A stretch of DNA of 47,149 nucleotides from Candidatus Bathyarchaeota archaeon (GCA_029882515.1 JAOUKN010000002.1:1-47149); one strand, 5' to 3'; shown: positions 3,034-47,100, counted from the first letter of the stretch. Made by a program: numbers and translations. Notes: generated by a model not told the origin, from the letters alone.

Positions 3034-3118
3034 AAGCAGATTGCGCGCGCGGGTGAGAAATAAATATGAAGAAAGCCATTATGGATAAATGAGTCATGAA
3101 CTAGTTGGAGGTGAGTCA

Positions 3119-3448: not shown

Positions 3449-3514
3449 CGCACACCCTTAACGCAGCGCGCGGAAATCTTCCATTTTTCTTTATAGGTCA
3501 CTGCGCGTGCTTAG

Positions 3515-3540
3515 CTGTTCTAAACTCTGGTATTAAATAT
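3515..3540 (+). promoter_or_regulatory. Shared promoter-like motif copy 1 (CTGTTCTAAACTCTGGTATTAAATAT), with a TATA-like 3' half
   Basis: One of four 26-nt copies sharing 18 invariant positions. It lies 56 nt upstream of a small TM ORF and follows a CGCG-rich patch at 3501-3510. Confidence 0.5.
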
Positions 3541-3595
3541 TCGGCATTATAGAGGATACATAAAAAGATGCGGTGGGAGGAGGTGTCTTAGAAGT

Positions 3596-3739
3596 TTGAC
3601 TTTAACAGAATTGATGCGGGCGCTTCAAGATTTTGGAATATTCGTTGTGATAATATTGCTAGCCTACGTTGTCTATAGGATAGCGATACTTGTGGAAGTA
3701 ATGAGTAAGAAAATTCAAGGCGAGAAAAATGGAGCTTAG
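3596..3739 (+). CDS. Small hypothetical membrane protein (about 47 aa, one TM helix)
   Basis: Hand-translated ORF below the track cutoff: (M)TLTELMRALQDFGIFVVIILLAYVVYRIAILVEVMSKKIQGEKNGA. TTG 3596 sits about 10 nt after GGAGGAGGTG; an alternative ATG is at 3614. It lies downstream of motif copy 1. Confidence 0.35.
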   Translation: MTLTELMRALQDFGIFVVIILLAYVVYRIAILVEVMSKKIQGEKNGA

Positions 3740-3780
3740 ACCTATATGCCATTCTTCACTTGTTCTGCTTTTAGTACACT

Positions 3781-3806
3781 CTGTTCTAAAACGTGGCATT
3801 AAGTAT
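3781..3806 (+). promoter_or_regulatory. Shared promoter-like motif copy 2 (CTGTTCTAAAACGTGGCATTAAGTAT)
   Basis: Second copy of the 26-nt motif, 35 nt upstream of ATG 3841 of the beta-propeller gene. An extra TGTTCT half-site lies about 20 nt upstream. Confidence 0.5.
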
Positions 3807-3840: not shown

Positions 3841-5610
3841 ATGGGTGAAAACATGAGAACAATAGTCAGAATTATCTTACTGTTTACTGTAATGACCGGT
3901 GCGATAGTGCCATTCTGTCTTCAGTCGCATTATTATTCGTTGGCATCCCCTCTGAAGAAATTCTCTTCATATGAAGAGATGAAAGTTTTTGTGAAGGCTC
4001 GGTTACGCGATCGATATTCCTATTCCCCCACATTTCTTCTTAGTGCAAGAAGCGGTACGGAAAGTTACACGAAGTCAACGGTTCCTGACTACTCAGCAAC
4101 AAACATCCAAGTTGAGGGAGTAGATGAAGCTGACATCGTAAAAACCGACGGGAAGTACATCTATTTCATTTCAAGCCAGAACGTCATTATTCTGAGAGCA
4201 TATCCTCCTGAAGAAGCTGAAATTCTCTCTCAGATAAGGTTCAACGCAACCATAAAGGGAGCTTTCATAAATGGGAATAAATTGGCCGTCTTTGAGCAAG
4301 GGAGTGAAACTCTGGTCAGAATCTATGACGTTTCAGATAAGGAAAATCCCACCTCAAAGCGAGTCGTATCTGTGAATGGTAGCTATTTCAATTCAAGAAT
4401 GATAGGGGACTACGTTTACGCAGTGATTACGCAATCAATCTACTACAAGGGAGAAATTTCTTTGCCCATCATCTGTTCAAACAACTATGTTGAGACAGTA
4501 GATGCCTCAGAAATTTACTACTCTGATATTCCAGATTATTCCTATGGATTCACAACAATAGTTTCAGTGAATATGCAAAATGATGAGGAAGAACCGACGT
4601 ACAAGACGTTTCTATTGGGACAGACAAGCGAAATGTATGTTTCTCTACACAACATTTACATAACTTTTCCCCAAAACGGAAACACCCTCATCTATCGGTT
4701 CCATATAGAGGGAAGTGCCATCGAGTCCGCTGCAAACGGTGGAGTTCAAGGCCATATTTTGAATCAATTTTCAATGGATGAGCATAACGGGTACTTCAGG
4801 ATAGCAACTACAACAGGTCAGATAGCACGAACATTTGAAGCAGCTACCTCGCTAAACCATGTGTATGTTCTTGACATGGACATGAACCTTGTTGGGGGAT
4901 TAGAAGGTCTTGCTCCAGGAGAGAAGATTTACTCAGCTAGATTTATGGGTGATAGATGTTACCTCGTAACCTTCCAAAAGATTGACCCATTGTTCGTAAT
5001 AGACCTAGAAGACCCATTCTACCCAAATGTTCTCGGTGAACTGAAAATAACTGGGTACTCAGACTACCTGCACCCCTACGATGAAAACCACATTATAGGA
5101 ATTGGCAAGGAAACCATTGAAGCTGAAACGGGTGACTTTGCATGGTTTCAAGGGGTCAAAATCTCCTTGTTTGACGTCAGTAACGTTGAAAATCCAATGG
5201 AAATCTCAAAGTACGAGATTGGTGACAGAGGAACAGATTCACCAGTTTTAAGAGACCACAAAGCGTTTCTATTCGACAAAACAAGAAGCCTGCTTGTCAT
5301 ACCAGTCTTGGTTGCAGAGATAAACGAGGAAAATTACCCTAACGGTGTCCCACCTAATAGATCCGGAAGCTATGTCTGGCAAGGTGCTTACGTATTTAAT
5401 GTAACTTCGGAGCAGGGACTTATGTTCAGAGGAGGAATCACTCACCTAGAAGATGATAACTACTTACTAAGCCACTATTACTCCCAATCTCATTACTCAA
5501 TTCAAAGGTCGCTCTACATAGAAAACGTGCTCTACACAATTTCAAACAGAAAAATCAAACTGAACCTACTTTCAGATTTATCGCTTGTCAACGAAATAGA
5601 ACTACCATAA
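3841..5610 (+). CDS. Secreted or membrane-anchored beta-propeller domain protein
   Basis: The ORF track starts at 3793, but that start lies inside the promoter-like motif, so ATG 3841 (or 3853) is more likely. There is an N-terminal hydrophobic segment (IVRIILLFTVMTGAIVPF). The rest resembles the bacterial/archaeal Beta_propel family (VDEADIVKTDGKYIYFIS, RFMGDRCYLVTFQKIDPLFVIDL, GYSDYLHPYDENHIIGIG). Confidence 0.75.
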   Translation: MGENMRTIVRIILLFTVMTGAIVPFCLQSHYYSLASPLKKFSSYEEMKVFVKARLRDRYSYSPTFLLSARSGTESYTKSTVPDYSATNIQVEGVDEADIVKTDGKYIYFISSQNVIILRAYPPEEAEILSQIRFNATIKGAFINGNKLAVFEQGSETLVRIYDVSDKENPTSKRVVSVNGSYFNSRMIGDYVYAVITQSIYYKGEISLPIICSNNYVETVDASEIYYSDIPDYSYGFTTIVSVNMQNDEEEPTYKTFLLGQTSEMYVSLHNIYITFPQNGNTLIYRFHIEGSAIESAANGGVQGHILNQFSMDEHNGYFRIATTTGQIARTFEAATSLNHVYVLDMDMNLVGGLEGLAPGEKIYSARFMGDRCYLVTFQKIDPLFVIDLEDPFYPNVLGELKITGYSDYLHPYDENHIIGIGKETIEAETGDFAWFQGVKISLFDVSNVENPMEISKYEIGDRGTDSPVLRDHKAFLFDKTRSLLVIPVLVAEINEENYPNGVPPNRSGSYVWQGAYVFNVTSEQGLMFRGGITHLEDDNYLLSHYYSQSHYSIQRSLYIENVLYTISNRKIKLNLLSDLSLVNEIELP

Positions 5611-6488
5611 CACTGCGCGCGTCTGAATGACTTACGTTCCAAATGAAACTCGACGTCAGGGCTACCGTCCACAAGGGCAACCTCTTGACCCCGTCAGGAC
5701 AGTTGATGCTCGTGGCCACTTGACAAACCCTGCAGGAACAGAAGAAAGATAGTAGCTGGATTGCGGCGCCGTCAGAGTAACTCTGAGAGATCATCCTGTT
5801 ATGTCAAACTAATGCCTTCTCGTCATCCGGCAAAGGAAGATTGGGTAAACCGCAATAAAAACGTGGCGTGCGCTCTGAACAAACACTACTTTTTCTGTTT
5901 TCTTGTCATTAACCTATTCGTCTCTATTTCATTGTTGTAACACGCCAAACAGAACCATAGACCATCCAATTTCCGCATATGTGATCCAGATCTACTTGCC
6001 CCACACCTACGACAAACTTTTCTTTTTCCACTTTTTACTGTCAATTTCTAATCCATCTCATAATTCTGTTAATCAACGCTTTACCCTTCGTCAAGTGCGC
6101 ACACAAAATACTTCCTTCAAATATCAAGAAGGCTCCTGTCAACAACCTAACACTCCCAATACAAACAACGCATATTGCCACTTCTGGTTGTAATTATCCT
6201 CCTTCCTAGTCAAAGCGAGTCATGATTTAAACCTTACCTACAAGCGCAATTGAAGGGAACTATTCCTGCTTTTTCTTGCACGTGCGCTATCAATGTAAAG
6301 ACAAGTTGAAATCCCATTCCACATTTTGCAATATGCTTCCACATGGAATCATATGTAATGGACTATTTAATGTCCATTAAGGAACGATCCGAGGTAGTGA
6401 CATAACTAGCATGCTCTGCGGCACGCGGACGTCTACGTAAAAAGATCTAAATTAAGCACAAAAAGTGGCGACTTCGATCGCATTTATT

Positions 6489-7544: not shown

Positions 7545-8288
7545 AACATCACTCCGTTAGTGGTCATTGAGTTAGAGAGTTTTCCCCCATTTATTGATTG
7601 AGCAATCACGTGACGTGTGTCGTAGTCCAATCTGTTAAATCCATTTCTGGGATTTTGTCGATGTATGCACACGCTAGACAGTTTGATGATAAAATAGTGG
7701 TAATTGTTCTGTTGTCCGGCTGCAAAACGGTACCATTTGCGCACGCGCCGCACTGGCCTAGTCGGTACATCTCCGCAATTTTCATTAGCCGTACGGCGTG
7801 GGGAAGCATAGTTGGATCCAAATATTCATGAAACATGAAAACCGAGGGGGTACCAGGCAAGGTTCAACGCGTTCCTAAGACGTTTGACGGCCACACGCAA
7901 CCGACTCGTGGACAGTTAATTCTGGATTTAAAGGTTATCCAAGAATTACGCAGTGACCAAGCTATCGATACACATCCCAAAAGTGGAAGGAAAAACAGAA
8001 CCGGGCTCACCAAACCTTCGTTACTTAATCAAGACGAGAAAAACGTTCAAACACTACATCAAATGCGCGCGGTCAGTGGCTAGAGCGTGTTGTGTTGCCG
8101 ATCAGTAAGAAACTAACTGCAACGTGATCGCCCTGCGGCTTTCCTTGATGGTTAGAGCTCTATGCAGGATTTATTCAAACTGTCAGCGATGGTTTATTGC
8201 AACAATGTGCACAGGCTTATAAGTTGCAAGCGTTCCTTGCATTCATACTTCCAAGCGCATGAAGTCAAACTAAAAGGTTGCAAAGGAA

Positions 8289-9628
8289 ATGAATCAGCCC
8301 AACAAGGAACACCACAAACTAGCAACCACTGGTCCCACAGGCATGTTGGCATTTACCATCATCTGGATTGGTCAAGTAATTTCCCTCCTAGGCACAGCTA
8401 TGACAGGATTCGCGCTCACAATCTGGGCGTGGGAAATCACTGGAGAGGCCACAGCCTTAGCATTGGTTGGATTCTTTACCTTTGCGCCAACTTTGCTGAC
8501 CAGTCCCTTCGCAGGGGCACTGGTGGATCGCTGGAGCCGCAAATTCGTCATGATGCTCAGCGATCTCGCTGCGGTTTCATCAACAGTAGTTGTGTTACTA
8601 CTGTATTCAACCGGAAACCTGCAGATTTGGCATCTCTACCTAACAGGAGCGTTTGCCGGTGCTTTTGGAGCTTTCCAATTCCCAGCATACTCTGCAGCCG
8701 TGACTACATGGTATCCAAGAGACAGTACGGTCGCACAAGTGGCATGCTCTCTGCAGCTCAATTTGCTTCCAACATCTTCGGTCCAGCACTTGCTGTAATC
8801 TTCTTGAGCATAATCGGCATTACCGGCATCTTGACAATTGACATCATCACTTTCTTCGTCGCCATTGGCGCATTGCTTTTCGTTCATGTGCCTCAACCCG
8901 TGATTACTGCAGAAGGACAGAAGAGCCGCGGTAGTCTTTGGAAAGAGTCAGCTTATGGGTTCCCGTATATCTTCAAGCGACGAGGTCTACTCGGTCTGTT
9001 ACTAGTTTTCTTCGGGATCAATCTTGTTGCCACCTTCGCCTTTACACTGTTGGCACCTATGATTCTCGCCCGAACCGGAAACGATGAAACTGCGCTAGGG
9101 ATTGTCCAGTCGGCTATCGGAGTTGGTGGAGTGGTAGGTAGCATAGTACTCAGTATTTGGGGTGGTCCAAAGCGAAGGATACATGGTGTTTTAAGTGGAT
9201 TAGTACTTGTCATGCTGGGTGTTCTATTCATAGGCTTTGGACGTAATCCTTATGTCTGGGCGTTGGCCGCCTTTTTCACAATGTTTTTTATTCCAATCGT
9301 CCAGGGATCGAGTAATGCTATCTGGCAGGCCAAGGTTGCTCCAGACGTGCAAGGGCGGGTATTTGCAACCCGTGGAATAATTGCAACTATCAGTCGGCCT
9401 GTGGCGTTATTAGTGCTTGGTCCTCTGGCCGATCGTGTCTTCGAGCCAGCCATGATGCCGGGTGGCAGTCTGGTACCCGCACTCAGTTGGTTAGTCGGTA
9501 CTGGTCCAGGTGCTGGCATGGCGCTGATGTTTATCATCTCTGGATGTTTGGGGATGTTAGTAGGCCTAGGGGGCTACATCTTCCGTGTTGTGCGGAACGT
9601 TGAAGATATTTTGCCTGATCATACGTAA
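8289..9628 (+). pseudogene. MFS transporter (MFS_3/EntS-like) interrupted by a 1-nt frameshift near 8706-8708
   Basis: The N-terminal 139 aa read in the frame starting at 8289 (...FQFPAYSAAVTT). The family-typical continuation MVSKRQYGRTSGMLSAAQ... reads in the frame of ORF 8162..9628, from ATG 8708. One base appears to be missing. Confidence 0.7.
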
Positions 9629-13082: not shown

Positions 13083-14054
13083 TTATGACAGTAGTTTGCT
13101 CACTAGAAGCACAAGACACATGAAGACAATTGTTTGGGTCACCAAGGTGATCCACTGCGGATTGTGTGCAGACAAATTTTCGATCTCTTGTGCGATAGAA
13201 CTCTGATTTTCTGAGGATGCGTGTCTTTTGGAAAGATGGTAAAGGGTCTTGTATTTTTGCAGTACAAAACCGTAGGTAACTGCCATAGCAAGCAGAAAAC
13301 CTACTAATATCGGGTGAGATGCATATGCCAGTTTTAGGAATAAACCTGCTCCACAGAGGAAACCTCCCAAACTCAATAACACCATACTGAAGAATGAAGC
13401 CTTGACCAAGCCAAGCCGCACTGTCATAGTTTTGATGCCTAATGCCTTGTCTCCAAAGTAATCCCGGATTTCAGCTGGCACAATTACGCTATAAACCGTC
13501 AAAGCCTGCCCTGAAAGGAAAATGAGGAACAAAGGCTCCAATTCAGATGTGAAGGTGTGAAACACAAATGTTACCGGTAGAATGCTAAGGACAATAAGTA
13601 GTGTGATTACAGCAAGCCATGATCTGGACTTCAACCTAAGGGGTGGAGCAGAATAGGCGTAAGCCAAGAAAACGGCTGCCATCCACATAAATATTGAAGC
13701 AAGTTTTCCCTGAATTCGAAACAACATTGCTATGAAAACCAAACTCAGCAGAACTTCGACAACTATAAACAATTTGAGCTTGCCTCTTCCTAGGTGGCTC
13801 ATGGCTTTAACGAGTTCCTTTTTCCGGCTGTCTCGTGAGTCCAATTCGTAATCGGATATTGTGTTCACTTGGGCCGCTACAGCAGAAACAAGTGTGATTA
13901 TAGTGAAGACTAAAGTTGCTGGAATTCCCAAATCCCAAACGACATCCAAGGGCGGAACAATGCCCCATGAGAGCCCAATAATGAGCGAAGCCGAATTCGC
14001 CGGAAGAAACTCTGGTCTGGAAACAGTAACAAGTAATCTTGCAGTCTTAGACAT
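13083..14054 (-). CDS. UbiA family prenyltransferase (polytopic membrane protein)
   Basis: The ORF track extends to 14153. I prefer Met at 14054 (MSKTARLLVTVSRPEF...). It has the NxxxDxxxD motif (NTISDYELD) and multiple TM helices. Confidence 0.75.
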   Translation of the reverse strand: MSKTARLLVTVSRPEFLPANSASLIIGLSWGIVPPLDVVWDLGIPATLVFTIITLVSAVAAQVNTISDYELDSRDSRKKELVKAMSHLGRGKLKLFIVVEVLLSLVFIAMLFRIQGKLASIFMWMAAVFLAYAYSAPPLRLKSRSWLAVITLLIVLSILPVTFVFHTFTSELEPLFLIFLSGQALTVYSVIVPAEIRDYFGDKALGIKTMTVRLGLVKASFFSMVLLSLGGFLCGAGLFLKLAYASHPILVGFLLAMAVTYGFVLQKYKTLYHLSKRHASSENQSSIAQEIENLSAHNPQWITLVTQTIVFMCLVLLVSKLLS

Positions 14055-14475
14055 TACTGGATTCCTCTTGAAGCCAATAAGCTTGAATAAAGCTATATAA
14101 ACGATGACAGTGGCGATTGCTCGGAAAGAACAGCTACCCGTGTAGAATGGCAATCTTTTTTAATAAGTATACGTGCATGCATGGGATACACCACAAAAGC
14201 GGAGGTCCAAATTTGGCTAAAAAAAGCAAGAAAGAGAAAGCTGCAGGTCGAGAACAGCATAGACAATTGCAGAGATCTAAGAAAATGAAGAAGAAACAAA
14301 AGAAGAATACTGAGCTTCCTCAAAGACATAAGAAAAAAAAGTGATAGTCTTTTACTAAAAAGCATATCTATCTGACCATATCATGTGGCAGAATAGTTCT
14401 GTAGTCCGTCAACTGCAAACGGAATAAAACATATAATTCCTTACTTCTATTATTTTGGCAGTGATCAAATTGGGT

Positions 14476-15024: not shown

Positions 15025-15102
15025 GGGCCGGTAGTTCAGTCTGGAACGAATGCCTGACTTGCACTCAGGAGGCCGCGGGTTCAAATCCCGCCCGGTCCAC
15101 CA
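15025..15102 (+). tRNA. tRNA-Ala (anticodon UGC) with encoded CCA
   Basis: Hand-folded cloverleaf. Acceptor GGGCCGG/CCGGTCC includes the G3:U70 alanine identity pair. Anticodon arm CCTGA-CTTGCAC-TCAGG, T-arm GCGGG-TTCAAAT-CCCGC, discriminator A, then CCA. Confidence 0.9.
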
Positions 15103-28540: not shown

Positions 28541-28762
28541 AACCATTCTGATATATCTTCATCTCTTTTGGGCTTGAAGTCAAAGTCCATGGACACAAAA
28601 GTCGGATCTAAATCCGTTCTCGAGTTTCCGATGTAGTCTGCAACATTTATTTGTGTTGCATCTGTTAAATAGGCGCTGATTCTCACGGTGATTTTTTCAT
28701 TTATAGCGCGCGCACAGGAGAATAACAACGAATAAAGTCTGTTGTTCTAGTCGTAGAACTTG

Positions 28763-28788
28763 CTGTTCTAAACCGTGGAATTATATAC
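28763..28788 (+). promoter_or_regulatory. Shared promoter-like motif copy 3 (CTGTTCTAAACCGTGGAATTATATAC)
   Basis: Third copy of the motif, preceded by the palindrome GTTCTAgtcgTAGAAC (28744-28759). About 60 nt upstream of the 111-aa membrane-protein ORF. Confidence 0.45.
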
Positions 28789-28845: not shown

Positions 28846-29181
28846 GTGACCATGGAGAAGGTGGACTTGAAAAAAATCCTCGCATATACCTTCACTGCAG
28901 TCTTGCTAGGATCAGTGATAATGCTTTCTCCGCTTCAGCTATTCTATGTCTCTCAAGGAGAGGGAGGGCTACTCACCTGCAACGCACCTTACATCAGAAC
29001 CCCTGACCAGTTAGCGAGTTGGGGCTCGCCCGACGCTGAAAAAGTAGCCACTCATCCAACCGATCCCTTTGTCGGGGCGTTAGCCCTTAGTTTCTTCGTA
29101 GCGTTAGTTGCGTACTTACTCCTTAGAAGACGCCGACCTGACGTATCGTATCGTCATTCTCAATATTTCCTCCGTTCATAA
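28846..29181 (+). CDS. Small hypothetical membrane protein (N- and C-terminal TM segments)
   Basis: 111-aa ORF (GTG 28846, or ATG 28852). Hydrophobic segments ILAYTFTAVLLGSVIML and VGALALSFFVALVAYLLL, the latter followed by RRRR. No family recognised. Confidence 0.5.
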   Translation: MTMEKVDLKKILAYTFTAVLLGSVIMLSPLQLFYVSQGEGGLLTCNAPYIRTPDQLASWGSPDAEKVATHPTDPFVGALALSFFVALVAYLLLRRRRPDVSYRHSQYFLRS

Positions 29182-29206
29182 TGCGCGCGCCCAGCTGAAG
29201 CAAGGG

Positions 29207-30050: not shown

Positions 30051-31544
30051 TTAGGGTTCGTAACGGAACGGATGCCTGGCCGACTCCTTCCTCTCCATGA
30101 GCTCCTCCGAAGTAGGTCTCGCCTCTAACGCCCTACGAATCGCCCAAACCATCGCCTTGAAGTTGTTTATCATCACTCGTTTTGGATTAGACGCAGTCGG
30201 ATGAACAAAGACGTTCGCGATCATAACCAACTCTTCTAAGGCATCTTTAGGCAGCAAACCGTCTTCCACGCTGTCCACAACAGCCTTGGCGACCCCACTC
30301 ATCGCATGCACATACACAAATTCAGCCTGACGCTCAGTTCTAATGGTGACTGTGGGGACCAATAAAGTGTCAGGCTTGACTGTTTTGCTTCCTAATCTTA
30401 CAAGTTGGGGGTCATGACCAGTTCTAGGATTTGCCAAAGTTTCCCGAAACGTCCTACCAACTGGACCATTCCTCAACCCTATGAGAAGATCAACGTGAGC
30501 AACTTCAGCTGTGCTGGGTGATGCAAAGGCTTCGCCAACTTTCAAAGAGAAATCACGTATTTTCATGGGGGTCTGAGGTGTAGCCCCAGCAAACATACTT
30601 TTAGTCACAAGATTCGGCTTAATTTCCAATTGGAGAGTTTTGCTGGAAAGTTTCCCTAACCACTCCAAACTCAATCTAAGTAGCTCTTCATCCTCATAAC
30701 GAAAGACACCCCCAGTCATAAGGGGCTTTCTCGCGGTTCCAACATCCAGCTCCATCATTCTTAATCCAGCTTTGACCGCAAGGCCTCCACCATGCCTAGT
30801 AATAATTCTTGCCAAAGTCTGAACCTTCCTTTGAAGACTACGGGCCTCCTCCAGATCGTGCTTTTCAACCAAGTCGTACAGTCGTAACCAAAGGTCAGGT
30901 ATCAGATTCGCAGAAGCTAATATCAGCCCATCAGCACCGGCGGCAAGTGCAGCCACCGCAATCTCATCATGCCCACAGATAATTGAAATCTTTCCATAAA
31001 CCTTCTCAAATAAAGCCATCATATAAGGCATGTTACCGCTGCTGTCCTTAATCCCAACTATATTATCGATTTCAGATAGGCCTTCCACGACCCACCAAGG
31101 GATCTCAACACCTGTGACCTGTGGAATATTGTAAAGAATGATTGGAAGGTCTGCAGCCTCCGCAATTTTGTCGTAGTGTTCATAGATCTCCTTGTCTGTG
31201 GGCTTGAAGTAGAAAGGCGAGACTACTAGGGCAGCGGTTGCACCTGCATCCTCAGCATGTTTGGTAAACTCTATGGCGTTCGTTGTTCTGGCGTCTCCAG
31301 TTCCAGCAATAACCGGCACCCGACCGTTAACCTCATCTATAGTAACTTCGATAACCTTCATCCTTTCTTCCACGGTCATGTTGACAAATTCGCCTGTTGT
31401 CCCACATGGAACCACTCCAGTGACGCCTTTCTCAATGACAAAATCTACCAGTCGCCTTAAACTCTCCTCATCAACCTCAAAGTTTCTTTCAAATGGTGTT
31501 ACGAGAGCGGGAATCACTCCCTTTAACCAAAATTTCTTCTCCAT
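30051..31544 (-). CDS. Fusion protein: DapA/DHDPS-NAL family class I aldolase plus formaldehyde-activating enzyme (Fae) domain
   Basis: Preferred start ATG 31544 (MEKKFWLKGVIPALVTPF). Aldolase motifs: CGTTGEF, LYNIPQ, VGIKDSSG (Schiff-base Lys context). The C-terminal ~171 aa (about nt 30054-30566) align by eye to Fae: VGEAF...EVAHVDLLIG, KPDTLLVPTVTI, VFVHPTA, ARHPF. Confidence 0.85.
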   Translation of the reverse strand: MEKKFWLKGVIPALVTPFERNFEVDEESLRRLVDFVIEKGVTGVVPCGTTGEFVNMTVEERMKVIEVTIDEVNGRVPVIAGTGDARTTNAIEFTKHAEDAGATAALVVSPFYFKPTDKEIYEHYDKIAEAADLPIILYNIPQVTGVEIPWWVVEGLSEIDNIVGIKDSSGNMPYMMALFEKVYGKISIICGHDEIAVAALAAGADGLILASANLIPDLWLRLYDLVEKHDLEEARSLQRKVQTLARIITRHGGGLAVKAGLRMMELDVGTARKPLMTGGVFRYEDEELLRLSLEWLGKLSSKTLQLEIKPNLVTKSMFAGATPQTPMKIRDFSLKVGEAFASPSTAEVAHVDLLIGLRNGPVGRTFRETLANPRTGHDPQLVRLGSKTVKPDTLLVPTVTIRTERQAEFVYVHAMSGVAKAVVDSVEDGLLPKDALEELVMIANVFVHPTASNPKRVMINNFKAMVWAIRRALEARPTSEELMERKESARHPFRYEP

Positions 31545-31545
31545 C

Positions 31546-33000
31546 CTAACCCCTCCACACTCGGAAAGCGTTTGAAAGAGCGAACTTGACTGCATCGTAA
31601 GTGTTTGTAAACAATATCTGTCTGTTTAGGGCTTCAGGATTAACAACAACCTTAACTATAATTGCATAATTCTCTAAAACTTCCTTTGAAATCACGTTTT
31701 CCTCAACTGTGTCTGAAACTGCCTTTCCAACGGCTGATTGAACTGGGCCGTACACTATGCTCGCTTGCCGTAGACTCTCAATTTTGATTGCTGGAACAAT
31801 AAGCGTAATCGGTTTGGCAGAGAGGTTTGGCTCTAAAATAGCTGTTAGGGCTTCGTGGCCAGGCTCAGGATTTGCTAAGGCTCTTGCCCACACATAACCC
31901 ACTGCACTTTGCTTTGGACCAGCCAGCAGAAAGACGTGCAACTTTTCTCTTCCTTCTCCAACTGAGGCTTCACTTACCAAGAGCTTTGACTGTTCGATGT
32001 CTTTGGCTGTGATCCCCAAATCTTGAAATCTATCCTCTAAGCGTTTTGGGAGTTCGGTTTTGACTTTAATCTGTTTTGCCGTTATTTTTCCAAGTTTTTC
32101 AAGTTCCATCCGTATCTCTTCTTTCACTTCCCATGCCAAAACTCCGCCACTTACCAGTGGTCTCCTTACTTTGCCAACATTAACGCTCATCATCTTTAAG
32201 GCTGCTTTAACGGCTACGGCTCCGCCATGTCTGCAGAAGATTCTTGCCAACTTTTGGGCACTCATCTGGATTTTTCTAGCAGAATCAACATCTCCTTTTT
32301 GAACAGCCTTATACAGTTTGACCCATATATCCGGGATAACATTCGCCGAAGCTAATATTGCTCCTTTGGCTCCAGCTGCTAATGCCGGCAAAACCACTTC
32401 GTCATGACCACAAACAATGGTGATCTTATCTCCAACGAAGCTTAGCAACTCGAGCATGTAGGGAAGGTGTCCACTGCTATCTTTTAGCCCTGTAATGTTG
32501 TCTATCCGAGCCAAGTCTTCGACGACTTCTCTGCTCAGAAATCCACCAGTACACTGCGGAATATTATATAACACGATTGGTATGTCTGCAGCTTTGGTAA
32601 CCTCATAGAAATGTTGATACGCACCTTTGTCTGCCGGACGCAAATAATAAGGGGTGACGACCAAAGTGGCGTCTGCTCCGACATCCTTAGCGTGTCTACA
32701 TAACTCTATTGTTTCTATAGTTGAGCTCGCACCAGTTCCAGCAATCACAGGAACTCTGCCGTTAACCTCATCAATAACCGTCTCCAATGCCCTCTTCCGT
32801 TCTTCTTTTGACATGTAAACAAATTCTCCAGTCGTACCAACGGGTACAACGCCATTTACTTCCCATTCAATCATGAAATTGACTAGATATCTCAAGGCTT
32901 CTTCATCAATTTCCCCTTCATTCTTGAATGGAGTAACTAATGCAGGAAAAATTCCTTCTAAATTGAACCTCTTTATCCTTATCACCACCAGAATAGACAA
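31546..33000 (-). CDS. Paralogous fusion: DapA-family aldolase plus a divergent Fae-like domain
   Basis: 484 aa. Aldolase motifs are intact (VGTTGEF, LYNIPQ, TGLKDSSG). The C-terminal ~147 aa are Fae-like but divergent: LHVFLLAG replaces AHxDLxxG, and there is no terminal HPF motif. One nt separates its stop from the next gene's ATG. Confidence 0.8.
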   Translation of the reverse strand: MSILVVIRIKRFNLEGIFPALVTPFKNEGEIDEEALRYLVNFMIEWEVNGVVPVGTTGEFVYMSKEERKRALETVIDEVNGRVPVIAGTGASSTIETIELCRHAKDVGADATLVVTPYYLRPADKGAYQHFYEVTKAADIPIVLYNIPQCTGGFLSREVVEDLARIDNITGLKDSSGHLPYMLELLSFVGDKITIVCGHDEVVLPALAAGAKGAILASANVIPDIWVKLYKAVQKGDVDSARKIQMSAQKLARIFCRHGGAVAVKAALKMMSVNVGKVRRPLVSGGVLAWEVKEEIRMELEKLGKITAKQIKVKTELPKRLEDRFQDLGITAKDIEQSKLLVSEASVGEGREKLHVFLLAGPKQSAVGYVWARALANPEPGHEALTAILEPNLSAKPITLIVPAIKIESLRQASIVYGPVQSAVGKAVSDTVEENVISKEVLENYAIIVKVVVNPEALNRQILFTNTYDAVKFALSNAFRVWRG

Positions 33001-39529: not shown

Positions 39530-39640
39530 CTGCAGTCCTCAGCACTATTTTGAAGTGATCTTAATGATCATTAGTCTTTCTGCAAAGTCTCAGTAGTAAT
39601 TTAACCTTTAATGTTATGAATGTATGCCCCGCGCGCGTAT

Positions 39641-46707: not shown

Positions 46708-47100
46708 TCAGTGTTTTTCAGACGCCTTCATAGTCAAGGAATTTGAAATAGCTCCGTTGATTACGATTTTGTCTAGACCGATTGTTGATAGTTTTCGACA
46801 AATATGATTCAATGAAGCCTCTGTGTAACGTAGCAAGTCTTCACCGTTGCGGGTTAGCTCGTAAACTTTTCTTGGTCTTTCGTTGCTTAGGTCCCATTGG
46901 CTCTTGATGAAGGTTTTTTCTTCAAGGGTGTTGAGCAGAGGATAGATTGTGCTCGGTCCAAAGTAGACTCCGAAGTCTTTTCGAATTTTGGTGATGATTT
47001 GGTAGCCATGCATGGGGTGCGCCTTTAGAAACTGGAGGACTACTAAGTCGAGGAGTCCTCTCATTAATTTGACCTCTACATCCCGTAATCTGTTTACCAT
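46708..47100 (-). CDS. PadR family transcriptional regulator
   Basis: 130 aa. LLDLVVLQFLKAHPMHGYQIITKI ... GPSTIYPLLNTLEE ... RKVYELTRNGEDLL is the PadR winged-helix pattern. Confidence 0.85.
   Translation of the reverse strand: MVNRLRDVEVKLMRGLLDLVVLQFLKAHPMHGYQIITKIRKDFGVYFGPSTIYPLLNTLEEKTFIKSQWDLSNERPRKVYELTRNGEDLLRYTEASLNHICRKLSTIGLDKIVINGAISNSLTMKASEKH

Follow-up and report, generated by a model that had tools for sequence, protein, structure and literature searches.

A 26-nucleotide motif upstream of envelope protein genes in Bathyarchaeia: a probable archaeal promoter with a built-in regulator-binding site

Background

The Bathyarchaeia are among the most abundant archaea of sediments, and we know of no genetic system for them. 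A search of the literature for the sequence of the motif described here, and for promoters or regulons of Bathyarchaeia, returned nothing relevant. Several systems known from other organisms provide points of comparison. The Thermococcales glycolytic motif, or TGM (TATCAC-N5-GTGATA), is bound by TrmBL1/Tgr and was found purely by comparative genomics; its position varies, an upstream site giving activation and a downstream site repression. TFB-RF1 and Ptr2 activate from a site immediately 5' of a weak BRE. In bacteria, ToxR unites an OmpR-type domain with a periplasmic sensor, and crosses the membrane with one helix.

Two further archaeal promoters must be considered. The flaB promoter of Sulfolobus acidocaldarius contains the ArnR/ArnR1 boxes, two inverted-repeat boxes TCGAC-N5-GTCGA at -43 to -84 (PMC6396743). 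At the fla promoter of Methanococcus maripaludis, a conserved site for EarA lies directly upstream of a poor BRE, and transcription depends on this site (PMC5512572).

The motif studied here, a 26-mer found upstream of genes for secreted and anchored proteins, resembles each of these archaeal elements in part. With the ArnR system it has in common two inverted-repeat boxes 5' of the BRE/TATA region and a link, here putative, to the control of cell-surface structures. However, the ArnR boxes are detached from the TATA box whereas the proximal site is here fused to it, and ArnR targets type IV pilus/archaellum genes in one order, whereas the genes considered here encode diverse secreted or anchored proteins in a whole class. 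With the EarA system it shares a short conserved site directly 5' of a poor BRE, in front of envelope or appendage genes; the EarA site, however, is another 6-bp sequence present in several copies, recognized by another protein family, in Euryarchaeota, and its regulon is a single operon. The TGM is likewise a palindromic promoter motif, order-wide in archaea, with a characteristic placement with respect to BRE/TATA and a regulon of its own, but its sequence, its regulator family (TrmB) and its function (sugar metabolism) are different, and the present motif keeps to one fixed register. What we propose, an operator fused to a promoter and defining a regulon, is ordinary in kind; yet this one is undescribed, and its invariance throughout an uncultured class is unusual.

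Four copies in a 47-kb window

The window analysed here is a stretch of 47,149 nucleotides from a Candidatus Bathyarchaeota archaeon, and the genomes closest to it are Bathyarchaeia. A preliminary description of this sequence had reported four copies of a 26-mer, all on the + strand, with 18 invariant positions, each upstream of a gene for a membrane or secreted protein. Every part of this report is exact: the copies begin at positions 3515, 3781, 28763 and 39641, and their alignment gives 18 invariant positions out of 26. The pattern CTGTTCTAAANNNTNGNATTANNTA, formed by the 18 shared bases, matches the four sites without a mismatch, and a search of the whole window allowing up to 3 mismatches returns no fifth site (0.07 expected, from 100 shuffles). 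The features of interest are listed below, all on the + strand; loci in other genomes are designated by L and a number.

3515..3540, + strand: motif copy 1, consisting of the half-site CTGTTCTAAA, a spacer and the TATA-like ATTAAATA; probable promoter of the 47-aa gene; exact match
3596..3739, + strand: gene of a 47-aa single-helix micro-protein, from the ORF list; TTG start 9 nt after GGAGGAGGTG
3761..3778, + strand: putative distal operator of copy 2, TGTTCT-N6-AGTACA; left arm 21 nt 5' of the proximal TGTTCT
3781..3806, + strand: motif copy 2, probable promoter/operator of the Beta_propel gene; exact match; the orthologous promoters of L030, L011 and L036 carry the motif
3841..5610, + strand: gene of a secreted or anchored beta-propeller protein (PF09826 Beta_propel, Pfam E 4.4e-154) with an N-terminal hydrophobic segment
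28743..28760, + strand: putative distal operator of copy 3, TGTTCT-N6-AGAACT; 21 nt 5' of the proximal TGTTCT
28763..28788, + strand: motif copy 3, probable promoter/operator of the small two-helix F3 gene; exact match
28846..29181, + strand: F3-family gene, 111 aa, with N- and C-terminal hydrophobic helices
39641..39666, + strand: motif copy 4, probable promoter/operator of the DUF2330 gene; exact match; also present in the identical contigs L001-L004
39696..41294, + strand: DUF2330 (PF10092) gene, Pfam E 1.2e-15, KD15 = 2.66; N-terminal signal/anchor and polytopic C-terminal half

The four downstream genes are those that had been described, a 47-aa transmembrane protein, a beta-propeller protein, a 111-aa protein with two transmembrane segments and a DUF2330 protein. 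The hydrophobic segment of the micro-protein has KD15 = 2.82, and the promoter and gene of copy 1 have their orthologues in L036, where a 45-aa protein (73% identity) is preceded by the same SD/TTG layout and the same motif. The 111-aa gene belongs to a family, here called F3, whose proteins of ~100 aa begin with a signal/anchor helix and end in a C-terminal helix and a basic tail; in tblastn, the window gene matches L038 (58% identity), L043 and L133. Genes of this family have the motif in front of them in L038, L043, L018, L020, L023, L037, L131, L133, L134, L138 and L140, and the neighbours of the window gene, TrmI and DHDPS-Fae, are the same as in L131 and L133. Beyond the genes preceded by the motif, a crude hydropathy scan of the window finds one gene with a hydrophobic N-terminus, at 13083-14153; it encodes a polytopic protein of 9 helices, which we read from its sequence as a UbiA-type prenyltransferase, and it has no motif.

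From the end of the motif to the first possible start codon, the distances are 55, 34, 57 and 29 nt for copies 1 to 4. Two of these starts may have to be moved. The true start of the beta-propeller gene is likely the ATG at 3853, behind GGTGA, as read from the window and from L036, and the F3 gene may start at the TTG at 28867; with these starts, suggested by the positions of the Shine-Dalgarno sequences, the distances for copies 2 and 3 would become 46 and, possibly, 78 nt.

Two separable parts

The preliminary description had also noted an additional TGTTCT upstream of copies 2 and 3. Both are real, at 3761 and 28743, and both are exactly 21 nt 5' of the TGTTCT of the copy itself. The hexamer by itself is not over-represented in the window, with 43 occurrences observed against 37 expected. 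The two additional hexamers form the left arms of palindromes, which read TGTTCT-gctttt-AGTACA at 3761-3778 and TGTTCT-agtcgt-AGAACT at 28743-28760. The distal element of copy 2 is found with equal spacing at the homologous Beta_propel promoters of L030 and L036, and also at motif sites of L038 and L010; a weaker form of the distal element of copy 3 is present at the orthologous promoter of L038.

Full palindromes TGTTCT-N6/7-AGAACA, with an inner spacing of either N6 or N7, recur at distal sites, for example at 28743-28760 in the window and in L023, L037, L140 and L111-L119. Between the left arms of the distal and proximal sites, the distance is 21 bp for six promoters (window copies 2 and 3, L030, L036, L038 and L010) and 31-32 bp for about eight others (L020, L023, L037, L140, L111, L116, L117 and L119), that is, two and three helical turns. 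The motif itself contains a partial dyad, TGTTCT-N7-A/G-G-N-A, with one perfect half and one weak half, and the weak arm extends into the BRE/TATA region. Since full palindromes recur one or more helical turns upstream, the hexamer of the motif can be considered as part of an operator, and the left part of the motif, (C)TGTTCTAAA, as a separable half-site of the putative operator palindrome TGTTCT-N6/7-AGAACA. A distal palindrome at 42 bp in promoters of the family F1, presented below, was discounted: it overlaps the end of the upstream gene, in which ...CFW-stop is encoded by TTCTGGTAG.

The motif was also studied in F1, a family of proteins of ~196 aa with the signature DADVPxDPNNPG. In order not to force the motif, 80 metagenomic loci were retrieved by protein similarity, yielding 67 upstream regions, 60 of them distinct; the TATA-like part served as the sole anchor of the alignment, and redundancy was reduced until 29 sequences remained, with identities below 80%. 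The sequence (N)(T/C)GTTCTAAA is present in identical register in 26 of these 29 non-redundant promoters, and the DNA further 5' is unalike between subfamilies. The core of the motif can be written GTTCTAAA-N3-T-R-G-N-ATTA-W-N-TA-Y; its first C has no conservation outside the source genome. In three F1 orthologues (L044, L054 and L085), an unrelated sequence replaces TGTTCT, and TAGTATTATTTAT is kept at an equal distance from the ATG: the right part can thus stand alone.

By analogy with known promoters, and in view of these three orthologues, the right part ATTAWNTA (motif positions 18-25) is best read as a basal TATA box. It lies in sense, 29-78 nt before the start codons of the window, a distance that fits a short leader. 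Next to it, the purine-rich BRE is absent, positions 11-17 reading NNN-T-R-G-N; the missing A-rich BRE fits a factor-dependent promoter, and weakens the reading of the motif as a plain promoter. The idea of a transcription-factor site joined to a promoter, already put forward from the four copies, gains by both observations: the TATA part kept where TGTTCT is lost, and TGTTCT recurring in palindromes.

Competing explanations

Assuming that the motif is a promoter, the whole 26-mer could still be a special core promoter read by a paralogous TFB/TBP, in the manner of a sigma regulon, with CTGTTCTAAA as an extended upstream recognition element and no separate regulator. The strictly fixed register of the half-site to the TATA part, in every instance, is what one would expect of such a promoter, and the segment that separates them is not a canonical BRE. 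However, the hexamer returns 21 or 31-32 bp further 5', now in complete inverted repeats, at a place where no general factor is expected; the proximal site is itself partly dyad-symmetric; and the orthologues that lack the half-site hold the TATA part in place, which suggests that they are still promoters. We consider this explanation improbable, and prefer a promoter with a separate operator built into it.

A still less probable explanation, to which we give very little credit, is that the motif is transcribed and works in the 5' leader, as a hairpin or a protein site for the membrane targeting or the translation control of the mRNAs of secreted proteins. The motif is always in sense and near the start codons of secreted-protein genes, and its positions 4-8 and 14-18 are able to pair as a short stem. 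But this stem is not maintained, position 17, the partner of U5, being mostly a T, and the distal copies are inverted and are DNA palindromes. A transcribed motif would require a promoter further 5', where neither a conserved AT-rich box nor any other conservation is found, and in L131, L133 and L138 the motif begins at, or just past, the stop codon of the preceding gene. The Rfam scan of the window finds nothing at the motif: its sole match at gathering score is a tRNA-Ala, at 15025-15099.

That a small dispersed repeat or MITE left these copies behind in intergenic DNA, an eventuality that the preliminary description had itself raised and that four near-identical 26-mers within 47 kb might suggest, can be practically dismissed because similarity ends at the 26-nt boundaries: the alignment of 226-nt segments shows no similarity in the flanks of the four copies, no terminal inverted repeats and no target duplications around them, the orientation toward the downstream gene is constant, and many genomes (proteins 60-85% identical) have the motif at orthologous promoters, within surrounding DNA that has diverged. 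Readings of the bacterial type, such as sigma-54 or extended -10 promoters, were set aside, the contig being archaeal.

Distribution and association with envelope genes

The 18 fixed bases were searched for in one genome per species, for 185,579 species and 596 Gb. The scan yields 39 matches, 31 of them archaeal and 8 bacterial. Among the archaeal matches, 28 of the 31 are labelled Bathyarchaeia, Bathyarchaeota or Bathyarchaeum, the remaining labels being Thermoprotei, Brockarchaeota, Nitrososphaera and Thaumarchaeota, one each. The bacterial total is about the chance expectation for 596 Gb, and three of the eight are one homologous locus of Flavobacterium. All 31 archaeal matches are in sense, 15-130 nt 5' of a start codon, with a median of ~34.

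An N-terminus was called hydrophobic when the Kyte-Doolittle mean over 15 residues reached at least 2.0 within the first 50 residues. This is the case for 32 of the 35 ORFs that follow the motif in the window and the 31 archaeal genomes, and for 33 of the 35 when L039, which looks like a frameshifted signal peptide, is included; it is the case for none of the ORFs downstream of the 8 bacterial matches. In the same loci, 77 of the 281 called genes (27%) have a hydrophobic N-terminus, giving a binomial p of ~1e-16, a value that overstates independence, many instances being orthologous; counted by families, about ten in number, the probability of a chance association is still ~1e-5 or lower. These roughly ten unrelated families comprise F1, Beta_propel, F3, the micro-protein, DUF2330, SIMPL/DUF541, a DUF3426-like pair, an ICMT-like polytopic protein and others, and most of them are without annotation.

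Best matches to the motif in front of all called genes fall in two groups, with 0-3 mismatches or with at least 5. Eight sites of these loci have 1-3 mismatches, against 0.3 expected, and 28 of the 30 genes that have the motif are in the class with a hydrophobic N-terminus. The same loci contain 52 other genes of that class without the motif, pilin-like proteins and polytopic transporters included. The motif is therefore the mark of a specific regulon, rather than a general feature of genes for secreted proteins. The cell-envelope regulon conjectured from the four copies is thus borne out across genomes in its link to envelope genes, but must be narrowed: only a subset of the envelope genes carries the motif.

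A candidate regulator

We now turn to the protein that might bind the operator. Clustering of all the ORFs of the motif loci brings out a protein of ~150 aa whose gene adjoins motif-driven genes in L018, L020, L023 and L037. This protein has 4,413 homologues; for the 120 best that were listed, identities are 59-84%, and the source is Bathyarchaeota, Bathyarchaeia or Thermoproteota wherever it is named. Pfam gives LexA_DNA_bind just over threshold and weaker matches of the ArsR type. The AlphaFold model (mean pLDDT 79.6) predicts a winged helix between residues 8 and 74, with two long hydrophobic helices after it, 81-115 and 121-147, and the structural neighbours of the protein are the DNA-binding domains of CadC, LexA, YodB, HlyU and Zur.

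The gene of this protein keeps company with F3. When loci are searched for with the ~150-aa protein, an F3 gene preceded by the motif is present within 2.5 kb in 6 of 6 distinct loci. Three arrangements are found. In L131, L132, L133 and L138, the motif begins at the stop codon of the candidate regulator, or 12 nt past it, and F3 follows; in L131 and L133, TrmI and DHDPS-Fae come after F3. In L018 and L134, the gene lies at most 2.5 kb from the pair formed by the motif and F3. In L020, L023, L037 and L140, it comes second in a SIMPL operon driven by the motif, and this operon and F3 diverge from two back-to-back motifs, a layout in which the candidate regulator would control its own operon. 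The window and the 4 kb beyond it (51 kb) contain no homologue: near F3, a lipoate-protein ligase gene occupies its place.

On the strength of this gene neighbourhood, established mostly through F3, we tentatively propose that the regulator is this ~150-aa protein, with its winged helix and its two membrane helices at the C-terminus, an identification that is quite possible but falls somewhat short of probable. According to the model, its topology, an N-terminal HTH followed by two C-terminal transmembrane helices, would be that of ArnR; the likeness proposed here is one of topology. However, ArnR is much larger, with HAMP and sensor domains for which the 150 aa of the candidate leave no room, and Pfam gives the candidate only weak wHTH families. 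With ToxR/ToxS, it would have in common a membrane-tethered winged helix, a small membrane partner encoded by an adjacent gene, here F3, and the control of envelope genes; the parallel concerns the logic of the two systems, and we claim no homology.

Other candidates were rejected. In L027, an RHH-like protein is encoded by a non-membrane gene behind an exact motif, and could have been an autoregulated regulator, but three other loci of this protein, ~60 kb in all, are without the motif. This protein has 371 homologues, and occurs in tandem pairs in Bathyarchaeia. Two regulators of the window, a MarR-like protein at 1961-2425, recognized by reading its translation, and a PadR protein at 46708-47100, recognized by Pfam, have only their proximity to the motif in their favour.

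A possible mechanism

We hold it probable that the copies are archaeal promoters, each with a regulator-binding site built into it, and that these promoters define a regulon of anchored and secreted envelope proteins across the Bathyarchaeia and some neighbouring Thermoproteota. ATTAWNTA would set the start of transcription ~22 nt past the end of the motif; from the usual distance between TATA box and start site in archaea, starts are predicted near 3562, 3828, 28810 and 39688 for copies 1 to 4. The 5' leaders would then be ~8-57 nt long, and would carry Shine-Dalgarno sequences. One sequence-specific DNA-binding protein would bind as a dimer to the proximal site, adjoining the BRE or covering it; at promoters that have a distal palindrome, a second dimer of this protein would bind to the same face of the helix, and the dimers would jointly control the recruitment of TBP/TFB.

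The sign of this control may be conjectured by analogy. We lean slightly toward activation, because the combination of a poor BRE and a conserved site immediately 5' of it is that of activator-dependent archaeal promoters, such as the one controlled by EarA. However, an overlap with BRE/TATA is likewise typical of repressors.

A more daring conjecture, which we regard as rather unlikely, would make the minimal membrane-tethered winged-helix regulator and the adjacent two-helix F3 protein a sensor of the state of the envelope throughout the Bathyarchaeia, acting on genes that co-translational secretion draws to the membrane. If this were true, a regulator fixed in the membrane would meet precisely the genes pulled there by co-translational secretion, which would explain why the regulon consists almost entirely of proteins that bear a signal or an anchor. 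It would be the first regulon and the first sensory circuit for Bathyarchaeia, and an archaeal counterpart of the logic of ToxR/ToxS. Should the membrane-tethered winged-helix protein be the regulator, it would in itself provide a very compact coupling of envelope status to transcription in archaea.

The motif can be useful in several ways. It is a marker for co-regulated envelope proteins, mostly unannotated, and helps to decide where small membrane genes, for example that of the 47-aa protein, truly start. As a DNA probe, it could serve to fish out the regulator, and it offers a natural test case for the combination of an operator with a TATA box in archaeal promoters.

RNA data and origin of the window

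RNA runs, both metatranscriptomic and untyped, yield assembled contigs from relatives, 85-95% identical, or a coverage as uniform as that of DNA, or nothing at all, and give no 5' ends. One RNA contig ends inside the motif; it was rejected as a fold-back assembly artefact. Transcripts of homologues of the beta-propeller gene are present in a wetland metatranscriptome.

The window belongs to an 82.7-kb metagenome contig, ENA ERZ27296366, which is also seen in sediment runs. Among its other genes, Pfam recognizes DHDPS-Fae fusions, TrmI and a Kdo/Bud32-like kinase, and reading of the translations adds Hyp hydrogenase maturation genes and HdrA-like genes.

A conserved micro-protein gene

The 47-amino-acid micro-protein encoded behind the first copy of the motif is a real conserved gene, with an orthologue at 73% identity in one of the compared loci outside the window, L036:

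window 3596-3739: gene of the 47-aa micro-protein
L036 3809-3943, - strand: gene of the 45-aa orthologue

The two genes share a TTG start and the spacing of the Shine-Dalgarno sequence, both have the motif upstream, and in L036, as in the window, the micro-protein is followed by a motif-driven beta-propeller gene.

Genes and promoters at the compared loci

In four other loci, the gene of the candidate regulator, a membrane-tethered winged-helix protein, is predicted to share a transcript with a gene for a secreted protein of the SIMPL/DUF541 family (PF04402, E 2e-53):

L020 535-1296: SIMPL/DUF541 gene
L023 315-1085: SIMPL/DUF541 gene
L037 2164-2904: SIMPL/DUF541 gene
L140 5199-5957: SIMPL/DUF541 gene

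The motif ahead of these genes carries a perfect distal palindrome, and the SIMPL/DUF541 protein may be part of the sensing module.

A very conserved tandem pair of paralogous proteins of about 195 amino acids is found at four further loci:

L027 5074-6236, - strand: tandem pair
L124, L126 and L128, 10001-11177: tandem pair

These proteins have 371 homologues and belong to no Pfam family; their N-terminus, judged from its sequence, reads like a ribbon-helix-helix. S-layer-like (SlaA-like) and CARDB/ABC-transporter genes adjoin the pair in some loci. The motif accompanies the pair in L027 alone and is absent from L124, L126 and L128.

Three promoters of F1, the envelope-protein family of about 196 amino acids, are natural variants that have lost the TGTTCT half-site and kept the TATA part of the motif; they belong to loci L044, L054 and L085 and lie about 60 nt ahead of the F1 gene. 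An A-rich stretch, AAAAAC, replaces TGTTCT in two of the three, perhaps as a stronger BRE that makes up for the loss of an activator site.

The metatranscriptome contig L050 runs from an upstream gene into the motif, then folds back as its own reverse complement (positions 1418-1462). The fold-back was most likely created during assembly, at the palindromic putative operator; the upstream gene's transcript may also end near the motif.

GCGCGC sites

The window contains 19 occurrences of GCGCGC, where 3.5 are expected. Grouped as distinct GCGCGC-type sites, 14 of 15 are intergenic in a window that is only 15% intergenic, often a few bases 3' of a stop codon. Examples are:

193, 959, 1354-1361, 2447-2454, 3043-3050, 3466-3472, 5615-5621
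8065, 15166, 28706-28713, 29183-29190, 39629-39636, 43716

The bias is weaker in other Bathyarchaeia loci, where such sites are six times as dense between genes (0.35 per kb) as in coding sequence (0.06 per kb). GCGCGC could act as a signal of its own, marking a boundary, a terminator or a site of protein binding.

Other genes of the window

According to Pfam, each of two tandem genes fuses a DHDPS-family domain to a formaldehyde-activating enzyme (Fae) domain; in locus L131, such a fusion adjoins TrmI.

window 30051-31595, - strand: DHDPS-Fae fusion gene
window 31546-33000, - strand: DHDPS-Fae fusion gene

Finally, two long + strand ORFs, 8162-9628 and 8289-8798, overlap in different frames. 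From their sequences, they seem to encode the two halves, N-terminal and C-terminal, of a single MFS-type transporter, which suggests a frameshift near 8700-8800, the mark of either a pseudogene or an assembly error.
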